From: a virus
Strand: one strand, 5' to 3'
Length of the DNA stretch: 46,647 bases
IMG/VR virus record: IMGVR_UViG_3300045988_053844
Location: 1 to 46,647 of that record
Shown: positions 1 through 46,647 of the stretch, one piece after another
Position numbering within the stretch: position 1 is the stretch's first letter
Layout of the letters: every line of letters starts with the position of its first letter
Position numbers and translations under genes: made by a program
The notes under the pieces: model-generated
What the model was told of the DNA's origin: nothing
What the model saw: the letters and a program-made list of their open reading frames with translations, nothing else
Database searches by the model: none

Positions 1-99
1 ATTTTTTTTGACTTGTTTTTTAGGCGCGGCGGCTATATAATGTAGATAAACAAGATTGGAGGGTAAAACATGAGCAAACAAGCAAGCCAAGCTATAAAG
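1..99 (+). repeat. Terminal direct repeat, left copy (assembly overlap / circular closure)
   Basis: 99 nt identical by eye to 46549-46647. Covers the promoter, RBS and first 10 codons of the 70-342 gene. Confidence 0.95.
8..41 (+). promoter_or_regulatory. Putative sigma-70-type promoter of the 70-342 HTH gene
   Basis: TTGACT 8-13 overlapping TTGTTT 13-18, a 17-nt spacer to TATAAT 36-41, then GGAGGG RBS 58-63 and ATG 70. Confidence 0.4.
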
Positions 100-7846: not shown

Positions 7847-10648
7847 ATGGCTAGTGGGTTAACACCTTATTATTTATTGCAGCCTGCGTTTACCGGCGGC
7901 GAAATCAGCACCGAAGTTGCCAACCGCGTCGATTTAGATAAGTACCAATTTGCGGTGCTGCAAGCCTATAACTGCCTTATCAAGCCGCACGGCCCTATTT
8001 ATCGCAGACCGGGCATGAAGTATATGGCACGAACGAAATATAACGATAAAGCGTGCATCCTGGTACCATTCAACGGCGCAGACAATACCGACTATCTTTT
8101 GGAGATTGGCGAGAAATATATAAGGGTGCATAAGAACGGACTTTATATAAACATAGAAGTTATGACACCGTACACGGCGGATATGCTGCAAGATTTGAGA
8201 TTTGTACAAAGCGCAGACACTATGTTTATTGCAAGCGGCAAATATCCCGTGAAACAGCTTGCAAGATATTCAGACACTGACTGGCGTTTTGCTGATTTTG
8301 AAATTACTGATATGTATTTTGACGAATCAACTACGCTTGAAAATTATAGCGGCATAAGCTATACCGTGCCCGGCTCTTACAATTTCCAACCAACTGTTAC
8401 CGGCGAATATCAAATTGATATAGCTGGCGCAGGCGGCGGCGGTGGTGCCGTTACATGGAGAAGGCACGGAGAACACCAAGTTTATAATTATGCCGCCAAA
8501 GGTGGCGACGGCGGCAGTGGTGAACGCATTATAAAAACTCTAACGCTGACCAAAGGCACAAGTTACACGATTACAGTCGGTAGCGGCGGCAGCGGCGGGG
8601 CTTATGCTCATAGTGCAGGCAACTACGAAGATACAACAGCTACTAGCGGCACTAAAGGCGCAGACAGTACGGCGTGTGGACTAACAGGCAGAGGCGGCGG
8701 CGCAGGCGGCGCGGCTAGCCGTATGTATGGCAAGGACGGCTATTATTCTAATGTTGGCACGCAAGGCATAACATACGGCGCAGGTGGCGGTGCTGCAGGT
8801 GGCGCAGGCGGTACAAGAAGGGGCGGTGTGAGTGGTAAAGCAGGCGCTAATGGCTGGGTAAAGATTTTATATACCGGCAATAAAGAATTGACACCTTCGG
8901 GAACGCAAGGCGATATTACCTTGACGAGCAACAAGAATATTTTCGCTAGCAGCAAGCCTGGCGCGTATATCAAACTTAAACAAGAGATTGCAAGCAAGAC
9001 TGTATCAACCAGCAACGGCACTACTGAAAGAGTGCGCGTAGGCGAAAATTGGAAGGTTATCAGTCACGGAACTTGGAGTGGCAGTTTTGCTATAGAAAAA
9101 AGCGACGATGGCGAAAGTTGGAAGGAATACAGAAAATATACATCTAAAGACGATTACAACCCGTCCGAAAGCGGCAGCGTAACAGAACCGGTATTTTTAA
9201 GGGCGGTATGTACTATCAGTAGCGGTACTTGCACTGTTGATTTAACAGCAATGGCCTACAATGCGGAAGGCGTTGTAAAGATTACTGAAATCACCAGCGA
9301 CAGCACGGCAAAAGCTCATGTTGAAAAAGAGTTAGGCTCAACAGATATGACTACTAACTTTTTATGGGGCGCATGGAGTGAAGAATTCGGATACCCGCAA
9401 ACACTTTGCTTTTTCCAGGACAGACTATGCTTTGGTGGCACGAAGAAGCAGCCTTACATGGTATGGATGAGCAGAACTGGTGACTACGGCAATTTCAGTG
9501 TAGAGAAAGCCAGCGGCACTGTTACCGACGATAGCGCAGTAGCACTTGCGTTTGTGAGCCGCAAGCAGTTTAAGATTTTACACTTGATAGCAAGCACCGA
9601 TTTAATCGTCTTGACTGCGGGTAACGAATGGACAGTAAGCGGTAGCGATACTGTAACACCATCTAAAGCCGTTCCCAAAATGCAGACTACACGCGGATGC
9701 AGCACTGTTGAGCCGTTGATGATTGGCGGCAGAATCGTGTTTGTACAAGGACGTGGAAGCACTGTAAGGGATATGGCATATAGTTATGAAACAGACAGCT
9801 ACGGCGGCAATGACTTAACATTGCTGGCAAAGCATATCATAGAGAATGTACAGATTGTCGACAGCGCATATAAGCAGGAACCCGACAGCACTATATACTT
9901 TGTGAGAAGTGACGGAACTATGGCTTGCTTATCCTACATCATGGAACAAAAGGTATATGCCTGGTCGACGATAGAAACACAAGGCAAGATTGAAGCTGTG
10001 GCAGCAGTGCAGGAAGGCGATGAAGATATTATTTATCTTGTAGTACAGCGAGAGATAAACGGCGCAATAGTACGCAATATCGAATATCTGGCAAAGAATC
10101 CTGCAAAGAGCAATAACCCCGACGATTATATTATGCTTGATAATGCTATTGAGTATAGCACTGCTGAAAAGAGCAGTGGGGAAACAGAGATTGATGCGGC
10201 AGAGTTGGCAGGTGAAAAAGTTACTGTTATCGGTGATGGAAGAATGTATAGCGGACTGACAGTAAGTCAAGACGGCACTGTGACGCTCCCGGCGGCCGTA
10301 CAACACGCTTTTATTGGCTTGCCCTATAGAAGTATCGTGGAACTTCCAAACGTCGAAATTAAGACTGGTGACGGCACTATGCAAGGACGCAAAAAGCAGA
10401 TTAGTAATTGCATCCTGCGTTTAAGTAATTCTCTTGGCGGCATGGTCGGGCCGGATATAAATACTATGGACTTGATGAACTTTGATGAGCAGAACGCAGT
10501 GAGCGATATTAAATTATTTACCGGTGACAAGCATATGACTTTGCCTATTGGCGGCTTTAATAACGAAGGCAGAGTGATTATCGTTACGGATGAGCCATAT
10601 CCTTTTAACTTGCTGGCGGTAGTGCGGGAGGTGTCTTTCGGTGGCTAA
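7847..10648 (+). CDS. Tail tubular protein B / nozzle-like protein with an inserted glycine-rich domain, 933 aa
   Basis: Occupies the T7 gp12 position. Contains an insertion of about 160 aa (nt ~8400-8880) rich in GGGG/GSGG runs. Confidence 0.6.
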   Translation: MASGLTPYYLLQPAFTGGEISTEVANRVDLDKYQFAVLQAYNCLIKPHGPIYRRPGMKYMARTKYNDKACILVPFNGADNTDYLLEIGEKYIRVHKNGLYINIEVMTPYTADMLQDLRFVQSADTMFIASGKYPVKQLARYSDTDWRFADFEITDMYFDESTTLENYSGISYTVPGSYNFQPTVTGEYQIDIAGAGGGGGAVTWRRHGEHQVYNYAAKGGDGGSGERIIKTLTLTKGTSYTITVGSGGSGGAYAHSAGNYEDTTATSGTKGADSTACGLTGRGGGAGGAASRMYGKDGYYSNVGTQGITYGAGGGAAGGAGGTRRGGVSGKAGANGWVKILYTGNKELTPSGTQGDITLTSNKNIFASSKPGAYIKLKQEIASKTVSTSNGTTERVRVGENWKVISHGTWSGSFAIEKSDDGESWKEYRKYTSKDDYNPSESGSVTEPVFLRAVCTISSGTCTVDLTAMAYNAEGVVKITEITSDSTAKAHVEKELGSTDMTTNFLWGAWSEEFGYPQTLCFFQDRLCFGGTKKQPYMVWMSRTGDYGNFSVEKASGTVTDDSAVALAFVSRKQFKILHLIASTDLIVLTAGNEWTVSGSDTVTPSKAVPKMQTTRGCSTVEPLMIGGRIVFVQGRGSTVRDMAYSYETDSYGGNDLTLLAKHIIENVQIVDSAYKQEPDSTIYFVRSDGTMACLSYIMEQKVYAWSTIETQGKIEAVAAVQEGDEDIIYLVVQREINGAIVRNIEYLAKNPAKSNNPDDYIMLDNAIEYSTAEKSSGETEIDAAELAGEKVTVIGDGRMYSGLTVSQDGTVTLPAAVQHAFIGLPYRSIVELPNVEIKTGDGTMQGRKKQISNCILRLSNSLGGMVGPDINTMDLMNFDEQNAVSDIKLFTGDKHMTLPIGGFNNEGRVIIVTDEPYPFNLLAVVREVSFGG

Positions 10649-29791: not shown

Positions 29792-30811
29792 CTATATTAA
29801 ATTTATAGCCTCTAATAGCTGTTCCAACGTCTTATGAGTGTAAACCCTTTCCGTTACATCGGAGCTGGCGTGCCCCAAAATTAATTTCTTGATTTTTACG
29901 TTTACGTCTTTATCATCAAGCAGGCTTGCACAGGTGTGACGTCCGTCGCCGGGCAAGTGGTCCATCTTAAACATATTCATTACCGGTTCCCAGTATCTGC
30001 TGCGGTACGTGTCATAGGATATATTCTTTCCCCGCTCATCAGAGAAGATGCATTTGCCGGTGCTGCGTTCGTAGGCAGCCTTGAAGAAGTCGAAGATTTT
30101 ATCAGCAATCGGGATTCTTCTGCCGCGGCCTGCCGCAGTTTTCATGCCGCCAACGAAGAATTTATTTTCAAAGTCAACGTCTGCTTTCTCAACTTTCACT
30201 AGCTCGGTGGGGCGCATACCGGTATAACAGAGGATAAGCACAGCTTGCACTTTTATATCCTGGCTGTTCTCCCATAATATAGCAAGCTCCTTTTTGGTCA
30301 GCGGATTGTGTATCCTGCTCTCAACCTGCGGCGGCAGGCTGGTAAGCTCAACATAATTCTTTACTATAATGTCATTGGCAAGTGCGTACTTGGCCATCAG
30401 ATTACACACGATTCGGATTGCCTTCTTGGTGGCGTAGCCTTTGTCGCAGTCATTAATAATCTGTTGGAATTGCGCTGTCTTAATATCTTTGAACGGTATA
30501 TCCCATAGAGGCGCGCAGCGTTTGTATGCCGCTTTGTATTGGTTGGATTCTTCCTTGCCGTCAACATAGGTTGCGGCTTCCCATCTCTCGTGTACCTGGG
30601 CGAACGTCAAGCCTACGCTTTCTATGTCATAGGGTGATTGATTGTATTCAGCCAGGGCGTTAAGTGCTTCCGTGCGCTTTGCATAGTAGCCTAGTATTTT
30701 CATAAGCTGACGGCCGTCATTGGTAAAGCCCGTTGTAATGCGGACTATATACGGCCGCCGCCGATTCCCGGTTAGTTTTGTAACAGAACCATAGCCGTTA
30801 GGTAATTTCAT
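29792..30811 (-). CDS. int: Tyrosine recombinase / phage integrase, 339 aa
   Basis: N-terminal arm-binding-like MKLPNGYGSVTKLTGNRRRPY. Catalytic-domain motifs TGMRPTEL, HxxR-like (GRHTCASLL) and LGHAS...VYTH. Confidence 0.9.
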   Translation of the reverse strand: MKLPNGYGSVTKLTGNRRRPYIVRITTGFTNDGRQLMKILGYYAKRTEALNALAEYNQSPYDIESVGLTFAQVHERWEAATYVDGKEESNQYKAAYKRCAPLWDIPFKDIKTAQFQQIINDCDKGYATKKAIRIVCNLMAKYALANDIIVKNYVELTSLPPQVESRIHNPLTKKELAILWENSQDIKVQAVLILCYTGMRPTELVKVEKADVDFENKFFVGGMKTAAGRGRRIPIADKIFDFFKAAYERSTGKCIFSDERGKNISYDTYRSRYWEPVMNMFKMDHLPGDGRHTCASLLDDKDVNVKIKKLILGHASSDVTERVYTHKTLEQLLEAINLI

Positions 30812-32224: not shown

Positions 32225-32599
32225 TTATTTGCTTTTGGCCAGATTGTGAACGAAATCTTCAAATAAAGTTTTCATTTCGGGCGGCAGTTTGAGATATTCC
32301 AAAAACAGATTCTTGGTAAACTCATCATTTGTTTTCAGCAGCTTGCCAACTTGTAGCGCTAATTCTTCGTTGGTCGTGTTCCTGGCACGGAACATTTCAC
32401 CTTCGCCTGCACGCAGCCAATCTTCATTGACATAGAATTCTCGACAGATGTCTTCTATTACTCTATCTGTAATTCCCTTGCCTTCCTTTTCATACTCGCT
32501 GACGGTACTAACTGCACGTCCTAGCTTTGCGCCGAACTCAGAAAGCGTTAGCTTAAATTGCTTTCTTACTAAGGATATTCGACTGTTTATCGTCTCCAT
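32225..32599 (-). CDS. CI-like XRE-family repressor, 124 aa
   Basis: GAGGTG RBS before the ATG at 32599. HTH LTLSEFGAKLGRAVSTVSEYEKG and the typical NEDWLRAGEGEMF motif. Divergent from the early operon. Confidence 0.8.
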   Translation of the reverse strand: METINSRISLVRKQFKLTLSEFGAKLGRAVSTVSEYEKEGKGITDRVIEDICREFYVNEDWLRAGEGEMFRARNTTNEELALQVGKLLKTNDEFTKNLFLEYLKLPPEMKTLFEDFVHNLAKSK

Positions 32600-32763
32600 A
32601 TAATCACCTCGCTTTGCTATATATATTATAGATAATCGAAAGAAAAATAGCAAGGAAAATTTTTCAATTATCGAAAAAAAGATTGACAAAACGAAATGAG
32701 TGTAGTAGTATAATATACGTAAAGCGAATAAAAATTTCGATAAACAGAAAGGAGGGAAAGAGG
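32600..32763. promoter_or_regulatory. Immunity switch region: divergent promoters plus operator-like repeats
   Basis: Minus strand: TTGCTA (32648-32653), 17 nt, TATAAT (32625-32630). Plus strand: TTGACA 32683-32688 with TAGTAT/TATAAT at 32706-32714. T(T/A)ATCGAAA at 32633 and 32668, inverted at 32735. A 17-bp near-palindrome at 32661-32677. Confidence 0.55.
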
Positions 32764-44514: not shown

Positions 44515-44546
44515 AAAGCCCGGTGCTGCCGGGCTTTTTTGCTTTT
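44515..44546 (+). terminator. Rho-independent terminator ending the rightward early operon
   Basis: AAAGCCCGG / CCGGGCTTT stem with a tgctg loop, then a ttttgcttttc tail. Confidence 0.75.
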
Positions 44547-44681
44547 CGCTTCCCTAAAGTATGTGCCACGCGCGCAGAAAAGGGCCGCCACGTGTTCCAA
44601 TCATGGCAGCCCTAGGATTATACCTGTAAAACATTTCGACTTCAAAAATATATAGCCTGCTCGCATTTATAGGATACAGAA

Positions 44682-44715
44682 AAGCCCCGGGGCGTTTGCC
44701 CTGGGGCTTGTTTTT
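44682..44715. terminator. Bidirectional terminator ending the minus-strand operon
   Basis: AAGCCCCGGGG / CCCTGGGGCTT forms an 11-bp stem with one G-U pair and a 6-nt loop, flanked by an A-run and a T-run. Confidence 0.7.
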
Positions 44716-44735: not shown

Positions 44736-44939
44736 TCAGCGGTCTAAACAAAAATTGCTTACGCTTGTTCCGTATACTTCCGCCTTATATATGCGGCCGG
44801 GGTTGCCGGTGAAGAACCAGCAAACAAAGAACACTTTCGGTCCGTAAATTGCAACGCTGCAATTATTCGCAAGGTCAATAATAAGATTATGACTATTACG
44901 ACACACGCCGTCAAGCTGATAAAATTTCTTTCGCTTCAC
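44736..44939 (-). CDS. Small Cys-containing beta-rich protein, 67 aa (GTG start; an ATG at 44969 is the alternative)
   Basis: AAGGAGG RBS 7 nt before the GTG. GTGA overlap with the upstream stop. Last gene before the terminator. Confidence 0.4.
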   Translation of the reverse strand: MKRKKFYQLDGVCRNSHNLIIDLANNCSVAIYGPKVFFVCWFFTGNPGRIYKAEVYGTSVSNFCLDR

Positions 44940-45115
44940 TTTAAAGCCTCCTTGATTTCTGCGGTCCATTCGTTCCGGCTTTTAAAGCCGCCTGCTTCCG
45001 CAACCATAGCGGCAATGATACGGCATGAAAAATCATGTTCCGCTTTATGCATTGCCGGTTGCTGGCGAAATTCTTCAATTTTCAGCAATAAATTTAACGC
45101 TTCTTCACGTTTCAT
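44936..45115 (-). CDS. Small helical protein, 59 aa
   Basis: AAGGAGG RBS. Sequence MKREEALNLLLKIEEFRQQPAMHKAEHDFSCRIIAAMVAEAGGFKSRNEWTAEIKEALK. Below the length cut-off of the ORF track. Confidence 0.4.
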   Translation of the reverse strand: MKREEALNLLLKIEEFRQQPAMHKAEHDFSCRIIAAMVAEAGGFKSRNEWTAEIKEALK

Positions 45116-45133
45116 TGCTTCAACCTCCTTGTT

Positions 45134-45772
45134 TTAATAAGCGTTTACCTTCCAATCGTTCCAATCGTCAAAGGTGACAACTGACAGCATTTTACGCAAA
45201 ATGCAAATATTATCTTGGTACGCCGCCTGTTGCTTTTTCAGCATCTGCCAGGCGGCGGCTGCCGCTTCTGCGTCGCTGATGATTTCGGCCGGGCTTTTAC
45301 CGCTGGCCTGCTTTTCCAGGCGCTTCAGCTCGTCGCGCATGTAGTCACCGTTTAAAATGCGGTTATTCCAATCACCGCCGGGGCGGTCCCACGGGCCAAC
45401 CGTAAAGCTCGTATGAACGTGCTCGCGCTTGTCAATGTCATAACTGATTGTTGTTATATCGTAGGTGACAGAGTAGCCGGCGGCGCGGACGGCGTCGCGG
45501 ATAGGCTGCAGCCGTGCGCTTTTCTCGCGCGTTTCCGCCTTGAAAATATCGGTATATGCGATATAGCAGCGACAAACGGCCTGCGCTTCTGCGTTTACCG
45601 CTTCTGCCGCGAAAAATTCGGCGGCGAAATGGTTGGCCAGGTCGGCCACGGTCTGCGCCGGTGTAATACGTGCCACGTGTTCGCGGCATAAACGCCAGCA
45701 TAACGCGCGGCGCGGTTCTACCGCTGCCAGGCTCGTTTCTATAGCTTTCGCTAATAATTCGGCTTTATTCAT
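45134..45772 (-). CDS. Unknown protein, 212 aa, G+C-rich
   Basis: AAGGGAGGA RBS. Ala/Arg-rich sequence using GCG/GCC/CGC codons, unlike the virion genes. Confidence 0.6.
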   Translation of the reverse strand: MNKAELLAKAIETSLAAVEPRRALCWRLCREHVARITPAQTVADLANHFAAEFFAAEAVNAEAQAVCRCYIAYTDIFKAETREKSARLQPIRDAVRAAGYSVTYDITTISYDIDKREHVHTSFTVGPWDRPGGDWNNRILNGDYMRDELKRLEKQASGKSPAEIISDAEAAAAAWQMLKKQQAAYQDNICILRKMLSVVTFDDWNDWKVNAY

Positions 45773-45880
45773 TGTTTATGTCCTCCCTTTTAAATTTTCA
45801 AGGTTCATTTTTTGGCCTGCCTCATCAGTACCGGGGCGGCCAGTCCCCGATATACGCCGCCGCGCTGGCGGCGTTTCGGC

Positions 45881-46441
45881 TTATTGTAACAAGGGCGTTT
45901 CCGGGCGGTACTTTAAAAACTCGCTGCCGTGCAGGTCGCGGATTTGGTCCATGCTCAACGTGCGGCGGACCTTCTTCACCCATTCCCCGGCGTGCCAATA
46001 CCATAATTTTTTCTTGCTGGCCCATCTGCAGCCCGCTTCCTTTAAAACGTCCTTGGCGGCTTTCGTTTCGCCGCCAATCCATAACCAATTACCGCATATC
46101 TCGATTTCAAGGCCTTTCAAGCCCATGAGCACGGCCAGAATTTCGGCGAATTCCGCTTGTTCGGCCAGGATTTCGGCGGCTGTTTTATAGGTGCCGTCGG
46201 CTTTCTTGTTGCGCTGCCACTCCTGGCGGCTTTCGCTTTCGGCAAGTTCGGCGGCGCGCTTGTCGTGCGCTGCACTCATTGCCTTAAATTCGGCGTCCGT
46301 GCCTCCCTTGTCGGGGTGGCAGCTCATGCAGGCTTTTTTAAACGCCTTTTTCAGTTCCTCGATTGTTTCGCAAGCGGCAAAAATCTTTTTCCAGTCCATT
46401 TTCTTTTCCTCCTTTTGTGTTTGTTCTTTTTGTGTAGTCAT
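45881..46441 (-). CDS. J-domain (DnaJ-like, HPD motif) protein with Trp-rich C-terminal domain, 186 aa
   Basis: AGGAGG RBS. IEELKKAFKKACMSCHPDKGG, with HPD encoded at nt 46310-46318. C-terminal LEIEICGNWLWIGGETKAAKDVLKEAGCRWASKKKLWYWH. Confidence 0.75.
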   Translation of the reverse strand: MTTQKEQTQKEEKKMDWKKIFAACETIEELKKAFKKACMSCHPDKGGTDAEFKAMSAAHDKRAAELAESESRQEWQRNKKADGTYKTAAEILAEQAEFAEILAVLMGLKGLEIEICGNWLWIGGETKAAKDVLKEAGCRWASKKKLWYWHAGEWVKKVRRTLSMDQIRDLHGSEFLKYRPETPLLQ

Positions 46442-46548
46442 TTTTAGTTCCTCCTAAATATAGCCATGTTGACTAGTTGTTTGTTTTTATGTCTATGATT
46501 ATAGCGTATGCGGCTATACTTGTCAATAGCTAAAACGGATATTTTTAT

Positions 46549-46647
46549 ATTTTTTTTGACTTGTTTTTTAGGCGCGGCGGCTATATAATGTAGATAAACA
46601 AGATTGGAGGGTAAAACATGAGCAAACAAGCAAGCCAAGCTATAAAG
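46549..46647 (+). repeat. Terminal direct repeat, right copy
   Basis: Identical to nt 1-99. The truncated ATG at 46618 is the same gene start as nt 70, not a second gene. Confidence 0.95.

Follow-up and report, generated by a model that had tools for sequence, protein, structure and literature searches.

A J-domain gene, a hammerhead ribozyme and interchangeable cargo genes behind a probable dedicated switch in a temperate gut podophage

The J-domain protein Rki, the product of gene 057w in the T4-like phage RB43, binds DnaK and stimulates its ATPase activity, and both domains of the protein are needed for the effect (PMC3486835). J-domain proteins were recorded in 137 phage genomes in a census (PMC13254874). 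Another group of known phage elements, type II hammerhead ribozymes with the pseudoknot described below, cut the polycistronic RNAs of prophages (Perreault et al., 2011; PMC3088659). Here we describe a locus in which a J-domain gene, such a ribozyme and a putative regulatory switch occur side by side. It lies in IMG/VR virus record IMGVR_UViG_3300045988_053844, the whole of which (46,647 nucleotides) is hereafter called the window, and it comprises a minus-strand operon of four genes (positions 44,736 to 46,441) and a divergent gene for a 90-aa helix-turn-helix (HTH) protein across the genome junction. The parts are each of a known kind, namely phage class-C J-domain proteins, prophage hammerheads and divergent repressor-operon switches. 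As far as the literature that we searched shows, the combination and this family of J-domain proteins are undescribed, and the search returned no paper linking hammerheads to DnaJ-type genes.

In the immI region of P22 (mnt, arc, ant), a small repressor gene is divergent from the strong promoter of an accessory operon located beside the late genes. The morons and hotspots of temperate phages have their own promoter and terminator, lie on the opposite strand, are distinct in composition and are highly variable. The window locus resembles the morons in its own promoter and terminator, its strand, its composition and its variability between otherwise near-identical genomes, but differs from them in having predicted dedicated operators over the promoter and a constant anchor gene followed by a ribozyme. 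Because the operators overlay the promoter, constitutive expression in a lysogen is unlikely. The locus is best explained as a three-part accessory expression unit, made up of a switch, an anchor and a ribozyme with its cargo, rather than as a machine of four proteins.

The anchor is the J-domain gene. We collected 168 loci encoding relatives of its product, and defined as close relatives those with a terminase that is at least 90% identical (n = 55); open reading frames in the relatives were called by codon score, with a caller that reproduced the public gene calls. The Pfam DnaJ model matched 36 of 36 aligned family members (best E-value 1.9e-18), and the HPD motif (H42, P43 and D44) was invariant in all of them. 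An earlier reading of the window, made from the letters and the list of reading frames and here called the sequence-only reading, had proposed both a J-domain with an intact HPD motif and a Trp-rich C-terminal domain, and the alignment bears it out on both counts, with W119, W121, G124, T126, K134, K144 and W147 invariant in the C-terminal half. A profile of the family matched solved J-domains at 4.9e-10. The AlphaFold2 (AF2) model has a predicted local distance difference test (pLDDT) score of 79 and helices at residues 17-23, 27-41 and 49-71, and the order along the protein is an N-terminal J-domain, a linker helix and a Trp-rich C-terminal domain with a beta-beta-alpha-beta-beta arrangement. 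DnaJ models match the J-domain part only, and the C-terminal half is a distinct Trp-rich domain, as in class C (type III). We classify the lead protein as a genuine class-C J-domain protein with an extra Trp-rich domain.

Rki is the only phage J-domain protein that has been studied, whereas the family of the window protein, which corresponds to PHROG 15863 ("unknown"), has members in 416 viral contigs and in 308 species genomes, most of them from gut Firmicutes. The two proteins are alike in being phage class-C proteins with an N-terminal HPD J-domain plus a family-specific domain at the C-terminus, and in each case the gene comes first in a small locus made up of unknown genes. No similarity between them was seen outside the J-domain, and the Rki-family J-domain proteins of Aeromonas phage 65 compared with the model of the window protein gave E = 0.08-0.2 and a template modelling (TM) score of about 0.23. 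A tblastn search of the INPHARED phages returned only five distant homologues of the window protein, none of them from a T4-like phage. Furthermore, RB43 is lytic, whereas the window belongs to a temperate podophage of a gut Negativicute, and neither repressor gating nor a ribozyme has been described for rki, whereas both are predicted for the window locus.

Beyond the close relatives, a family member is encoded in the 131-kb Fusobacterium phage Fnu1, a lytic phage, amid numerous small genes, few of which have a known function. Where the phage terminase is unrelated, the J gene is found at the same junction, with the terminase genes and a small ribbon-helix-helix (RHH) or HTH gene diverging from it, or else beside an integrase gene, and its neighbours are entirely different.

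Comparison with the relative L009, which is 99.9% identical across the operon, indicates that the leading J gene of the window is a secondary deletion product. The window is without 692 bp (L009 5316-6007), and the deletion junction (46415/46416) is in frame and lies at A-rich microhomology. The deletion removes an N-terminal domain resembling phrog_3754 and one small gene, leaving a fusion in which the first 9 codons come from an upstream gene (73 aa) and the rest encodes residues ~137-314 of the usual form (314 aa), which most relatives keep. At 46399 an alternative ATG, equipped with an AAGGAGG of its own, would yield a 172-aa form, as in the public gene calls for L001 and L003. The lost N-terminal domain has conserved Cys and His/Asp motifs, and a reading of its sequence alone suggests a papain-like fold.

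The second part of the unit was overlooked by the sequence-only reading. The 108-nt gap that separates the J gene from the 212-aa gene is occupied by a type II hammerhead ribozyme, the single match above threshold when the window was scanned with Rfam (49.1 bits; gathering score 37), and the match is full-length (model positions 1-66 of 66). The first base of the ribozyme is the last base of the J stop codon. The core elements CGAAAC, GUA and CUGAUGA are all present, and relatives vary only to the tolerated CUGACGA; stem I and stem III are both closed, stem II is open with 3 bp, and a pseudoknot pairs loop I (UGGCC) with the 3' tail (GGCCA). The cut is predicted after GUA, between 45853 and 45852, 29 nt downstream of the J stop. 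Across ten diverse copies (effective number 2.1), 97.5% of cells were paired against 24-44% in slid controls, and in this small alignment six pairs had changed on both sides, every one of the four helices including such a pair. Variants of the pseudoknot read GGCC/GGCC, GUCC/GGAC and GCCC/GGGC. Motifs and covariation together identify the element as a hammerhead at the level of its sequence.

Our own model (R1), built from the ten copies and scoring the window copy at 86.4 bits, detected exactly one copy after the J gene in every cargo-bearing close relative. Diverged copies are located beside the J gene in unrelated phages (L007/L008, L082, L144, L152 and L053-55) and upstream of it in L064/L091. 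Conservation along the alignment is 1.00 up to the precise 3' end of the ribozyme and only 0.4-0.7 past it, so that this end marks the exact boundary between conserved sequence and variable cargo. Among relatives without cargo, the CUGAUGA core is destroyed in L033 and L062, and the ribozyme is absent from L006. Such near-identical phages with and without cargo, and with an intact or a broken ribozyme, provide natural controls for the purpose of phage hammerheads. In its core, its pseudoknot, the closure of stems I and III and the very small size of the open stem II, the window ribozyme matches the type II hammerheads of prophages, and both are sited between accessory-gene cistrons. However, the known prophage examples occur in flanking pairs or triplets, whereas the window ribozyme is a single copy and, unlike them, is fixed to a J-domain gene's stop codon and borders a zone of cargo exchange.

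Other hammerheads were seen among the contigs. A type III-like minimal candidate follows the J gene in L083-L088 and L108; its core and stems fit, with 0 matches in shuffled sequences, while Rfam makes no call for it and its stem II has only 2 bp. In a prophage of Phascolarctobacterium succinatutens CAG:287 (L090 6544-6614), the hammerhead reads CUGAUGAAGC instead of the usual CUGAUGAGGC, a change that disrupts the first pair of stem II and may make the ribozyme weaker. In an unrelated viral contig (L228 129-4226; IMGVR_UViG_3300036851_000550), a 4.4-kb stretch contains five type II pattern matches, all on the same strand, and L172, L182, L206 and L244 contain two each. Multiple hammerheads per contig fit with the tandem arrangements reported in prophages.

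The genes behind the ribozyme are interchangeable cargo and probably act independently. The J gene is present in 55 of 55 close relatives and is the only constant gene of the locus. For the 212-, 59- and 67-aa genes, all eight combinations of presence and absence occur, with the full set in 12 relatives and none of the three in 6, and their pairwise associations are non-significant (Fisher p = 0.79, 0.16 and 0.16). The 67-aa gene is found without the 59-aa gene in 15 relatives, behind the 212-aa gene or other cargo, and the 59-aa gene alone in 7-8. At least ten other small cargo genes are mixed in, and there are more than 30 cargo arrangements. The cassette of the HTH gene and its operators is swapped independently of both the J gene and the cargo. 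The sequence-only reading had suggested that the whole unit was acquired as one module, and these patterns contradict it. Nor did the search for the four-gene synteny elsewhere, which that reading had called for, recover a fixed set: apart from the 12 close relatives with all three cargo genes, the set is incomplete or rearranged, the J gene has entirely different neighbours in unrelated phages, and the 212-, 59- and 67-aa genes were not seen beside it in the distant lineages. A more general caution is that tight gene order in one genome did not imply a multi-protein system.

An exhaustive profile search of 1.84 billion representatives recovered only 19 clusters of the 212-aa family and detected no relatives outside this phage lineage, and the helical AF2 model of the protein (pLDDT 72.6) had no PDB fold match better than E = 0.8. 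One family member (P0097, 310 aa) contains an internal tandem duplication of ~100 residues in its central region. For the 212-, 59- and 67-aa proteins and the HTH protein, nothing was found in PADLOC or NCBIfam. The 59- and 67-aa genes are a coupled pair in the window, as proposed earlier, in that the stop of the former and the GTG start of the latter overlap as GTGA. A toxin-antitoxin pair was considered and rejected, because each gene occurs without the other and neither product has a domain match.

The third part is the switch. The first 99 bases of the window (1-99) recur identically at 46549-46647, and this exact terminal direct repeat implies that the window is a complete circular or terminally redundant phage genome with 46,548 unique bp. 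Features near the two ends are thus neighbours, and the HTH gene adjoins the J operon, 177 bp from the J start and divergent from it, as the sequence-only reading had anticipated. Its product gave a match below the curated cut-off to PHROG 4583 "transcriptional repressor" (8.7e-6) and a sub-threshold match to the PDB 4ich regulator (1.2e-5), and the HTH alleles gave matches to the Pfam families DUF6471 (2.1e-5), HTH_3 (2.4e-5) and Phage_CI_repr (3.6e-4), all below their curated cut-offs; these sub-threshold matches suggest a Cro/CI-like protein.

At least four HTH allele classes occur in the relatives, with a differing N-terminal, DNA-reading half and a common C-terminal half. Throughout the 177-bp divergent region, the promoter hexamers and ribosome-binding sites are constant, and the J-operon promoter is kept in all allele classes, whereas the palindromes follow the allele. 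Class A, that of the window, has TAGCC-N5-GGCTA, class B has TACCG-N5-CGGTA and class C has CACTC-N5-GAGTG, and the sites occupy homologous positions, ~35, ~102 and ~144 nt away from the start of the HTH gene. A matrix of classes against sites is essentially diagonal, with roughly two or more sites of its own kind per class and virtually no sites of another class; class A regions have 2.4 A-sites and no B- or C-sites, and class B regions have 2.0 B-sites and no A- or C-sites. In the window, TAGCC-N5-GGCTA with at most one mismatch occurs three times within 125 bp, against two occurrences elsewhere in 46.5 kb, which is about chance level. At the site of the HTH promoter, class B relatives read GTGACA-17-TATAAT. 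This co-variation agrees with the earlier suggestion of a self-regulated unit with its own HTH regulator. It makes the HTH protein very likely the dedicated regulator of the J operon, and it is strong comparative evidence for a dedicated, autoregulated repressor.

In both the window locus and P22 immI, a small gene, encoding a repressor in P22 and a probable one here, is divergent from the strong promoter of an accessory operon beside the late genes, and the operator specificity differs between related phages. They differ in the repressor, which is of the RHH type in P22 and predicted to be a Cro/CI-type HTH protein here, and in the product, which is Ant in P22 and a J-domain protein in the window. 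A switch whose four or more specificities can be read from an alignment could supply ready-made orthogonal repressor/operator pairs from a gut anaerobe. No Firmicute-type LexA box (CGAAC-N4-GTTCG) was seen in the divergent promoter region when it was inspected by eye, with no formal scan. One relative (L052 4556-5143) has tandem regulator cassettes, a class A HTH gene with its operators followed by a class B-type HTH gene with class B operators, both upstream of a single J operon.

We propose a joint model, to which we assign a probability of roughly 0.6. An autoregulated Cro/CI-type repressor would bind three operators, O1 in the spacer of its own promoter, O2 in the spacer of the operon promoter and O3 in the leader. 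The operon would fire as a pulse in a naive cell and be silenced once the repressor accumulates, and also in lysogens; the silencing would be allele-specific, an "immunity" of its own. The hammerhead would then split the transcript in two, a J mRNA with the stem III hairpin at its end, and a cargo mRNA with a 5'-OH, which in the window would carry the 212-, 59- and 67-aa genes. The J cistron would serve as the anchor, its HPD J-domain recruiting host DnaK to a client and stimulating it, while the Trp-rich, DUF5710-like C-terminal domain would select that client or site. The purpose of the J protein would most likely lie in support of lytic development or host takeover, as may be compared with Rki of RB43.

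The nature of the client is a matter of speculation. Initiators of the Rep_3 type belong to a class of proteins that are remodelled by DnaK/DnaJ. The C-terminal domain of the J protein has a weak sequence and structural similarity, below the Pfam cut-off, to DUF5710 (PF18974), which occurs on Rep_3 plasmid replication initiators (PMC11233732). Because DUF5710 is fused to Rep_3 initiators, the likeness might, speculatively, hint at a replication-linked client.

A number of observations weigh against the joint model. Taken alone, the J protein of the window reaches 26.1 bits, below the Pfam DnaJ cut-off of 27.8, and helix I of its J-domain is short. The C-terminal domain has no relative in the PDB by either sequence or structure searches, and its similarity to DUF5710 is weak (E = 2e-4, in 3 of 36 members). 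Its BFVD matches are limited to the Fnu1 family member and a DUF5710 protein, and the latter match is marginal (33 columns, root-mean-square deviation 1.1, E = 1.1). On the side of the switch, O3 of the window carries one mismatch, class D shows no clear palindrome, and the -35 hexamer of the HTH promoter is weak and was assigned by eye; it is the positions of the sites alone that point to repression rather than activation. Terminator-insulated, opposite-strand and compositionally distinct units are also typical of genes expressed from prophages, and the timing as an early pulse could therefore be wrong. Lastly, 103 of 120 sampled viral contigs with the pattern of this hammerhead subtype have no J gene nearby, so the ribozyme may say nothing specific about the J protein. 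That the subtype is specific to J genes was accordingly rejected; the 17 contigs with a J gene nearby are nearly all close relatives of the window.

A bolder version of the joint model, which we think rather unlikely, is that the constant set of gated promoter, J cistron and hammerhead is a portable "dock" where cargo is swapped at the 3' edge of the ribozyme and where the ribosome that terminates on the J gene tunes cleavage. Because the ribozyme abuts the J stop codon, a terminating ribosome could transiently block stem II and the GAAA core, and translation of the J gene could thereby set when, or whether, the cargo mRNA is released. If true, this would be a natural translation-coupled ribozyme switch and a concrete function for the hammerheads of bacteria and phages, the role of which has been open since 2011.

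We also considered the possibility, in our view unlikely, that the locus is a prophage-expressed island for defence or superinfection exclusion, in which lysogens produce the J protein and cargo as a protection of the host against other phages, and the variable cargo reflects an arms race as in the P2/P4 defence hotspots. The unit is indeed on the opposite strand, terminator-flanked and higher in G+C than the genome elsewhere, its cargo is hypervariable between conserved flanks, and in some lineages the J operon lies beside the integrase at the prophage end. However, the sequence-only reading could not match the operon to any described system, and the PADLOC-DB v2 models support it in this: the five proteins gave matches at noise level only (PtuB 0.0018 and AbiTi 0.042), both on the low-complexity N-terminus of the J protein. 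Furthermore, the cargo proteins are small, without detectable relatives elsewhere and without enzymatic domains among those found, operators inside and just downstream of a consensus promoter are the layout of a repressed promoter, and the J family is also present in the large phage Fnu1.

We give little credence to a second alternative, according to which the locus is a second immunity region like P22 immI (mnt, arc-ant), with the HTH protein in the role of Mnt and the J protein, or its 314-aa form in relatives, as an anti-repressor by which the main prophage repressor is inactivated with the help of DnaK. The small repressor divergent from a strong promoter with small genes first, the position beside the late and packaging genes and the allele-specific specificities are as in immunity regions. 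The main lysogeny repressor of the window (32225-32689, minus strand, 154 aa) is an HTH_3 protein in which no S24 peptidase domain was seen, so that induction may bypass RecA-stimulated self-cleavage and another induction route is plausible. On the other hand, domain searches linked none of the proteins to a known anti-repressor, and Fnu1 encodes a member of the J family without an obvious lysogeny context. That the four proteins form one fixed chaperone-hijacking system, or the 59- and 67-aa proteins a toxin-antitoxin module, is highly improbable: the order J, 212, 59, 67 with its short gaps and GTGA overlap and the recurrence of the full set in 12 relatives speak for it, but the co-occurrence data from the 55 relatives led us to reject it, as do the 15 relatives with an unaccompanied 67-aa gene, the contrast between 19 cluster representatives of the 212-aa family and a widespread J family, and the lack of these cargo genes beside J in distant lineages.

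The features of the locus on which the joint model is built are collected in Table 1. The four minus-strand reading frames were found at the positions first proposed and are real genes; all are under purifying selection in the relatives (ratios of nonsynonymous to synonymous rates, dN/dS, 0.06, 0.10, 0.10 and 0.36) and show an excess of third-position changes. They make up the sole multi-gene unit on the minus strand outside the integrase/repressor module, the terminators that had been ascribed to it are present, and it has a promoter of its own. The hairpin that ends the operon also serves the converging early operon as a second terminator. Weak matches to Spot 42 and NsiR1 (44647-44715) were discarded as being merely this terminator hairpin.

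Table 1. Positions of genes and predicted regulatory elements of the J locus in the window; bracketed values give the same site counted from the start of the window.
Feature	Position	Strand	Remarks
186-aa J-domain protein	45881-46441	minus	HPD at residues 42-44
212-aa protein	45134-45772	minus	helical; ribosome-binding site GGGAGG 38 nt past ribozyme
59-aa protein	44936-45115	minus	stop overlaps 67-aa start (GTGA)
67-aa protein	44736-44939	minus	GTG start; longest reading frame (to 44969) is 77 aa
90-aa HTH protein, probable regulator, allele class A	70-342	plus	monocistronic, 60% G+C
Type II hammerhead ribozyme	45811-45881	minus	Rfam RF02276
J-operon promoter	46526..46498	minus	TTGACA-17 nt-TATAAT, 12/12 sigma-70 consensus positions
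Putative HTH promoter	46561-46589 (= 13-41)	plus	TTGTTT-17 nt-TATAAT; assigned by eye
Predicted operator O1	46569-46583 (= 21-35)		TAGGCGCGGCGGCTA; inside HTH promoter spacer
Predicted operator O2	46502-46516		TAGCCGCATACGCTA on minus strand; inside J-operon promoter spacer
Predicted operator O3	46461-46475		TAGTCAACATGGCTA on minus strand; J-operon 5' untranslated leader; relatives read TAGCCAACACGGCTA
HTH-gene intrinsic terminator	363-410, hairpin 363-400	plus	9-bp G+C stem, then T-rich tail; -31.6 kcal/mol, z = -6.0
Operon terminator hairpin	44682-44709		G+C-rich, U-runs on both strands; minus-strand fold -21.8 kcal/mol, z = -4.0
Early operon terminator	44515-44537	plus	hairpin

The claim that the unit is rich in guanine plus cytosine (G+C) stands for most of its parts. 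The span of the J gene, ribozyme and 212-aa gene has a G+C content of 0.535, which is in the top 0.4% of equal-length windows, and supplies 13 of the 15 richest 500-bp windows, and the HTH gene, also described as G+C-rich, reaches 0.604. The claim fails for the 59/67 pair (0.435), which is under the genome mean of 0.451. A G+C-rich run that had been noted earlier, CCGGGGCGG, is stem I of the hammerhead (69% G+C). Windowed G+C and codon usage had been suggested as a check; the G+C content is raised in part of the unit, and the codon-usage scores of the J, 212-aa and 59-aa genes are ordinary for the phage.

The phage itself is a temperate, BPP-1-like podophage. Its relatives encode Terminase_6N, a Head-tail_con portal, GP7 and Bbp19, and the window encodes a tyrosine integrase (29792-30811, minus strand) together with the HTH_3 repressor, YqaJ/RecT, a replisome organiser, a C5 methylase, RusA and SSB. 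Homologues of the 212-aa and J proteins were found in genomes of Phascolarctobacterium succinatutens, which is for this reason the likely host. A DNA similarity search against 50,697 deposited phages gave no match to the window.

Some minor observations concern regions outside the J operon. Between the HTH terminator and a 118-aa gene upstream of the large terminase, positions 400-677 are non-coding and very A+T-rich, with numerous TTGACA-like and TATAAT-like words and one 159-bp piece that is free of reading frames and has 19% G+C; this region could harbour late promoters or a packaging site. In the early operon of a relative (L006 9189-9392), a 67-aa protein contains the Acb2/Tad1 hairpin domain PF24729 of an anti-defence sponge family, which indicates that counter-defence genes of this lineage can lie there rather than in the J island. 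Rfam "gut-2" motifs are located ~3 kb upstream of the J gene in one lineage (L082 3677-3724, L083 2620-2667, L084 2951-2998, L088 3081-3128 and L108 2668-2715). A "skipping-rope" RNA is found in L077 (11224-11302), and L083 contains an array of five tRNAs (8698-9313).

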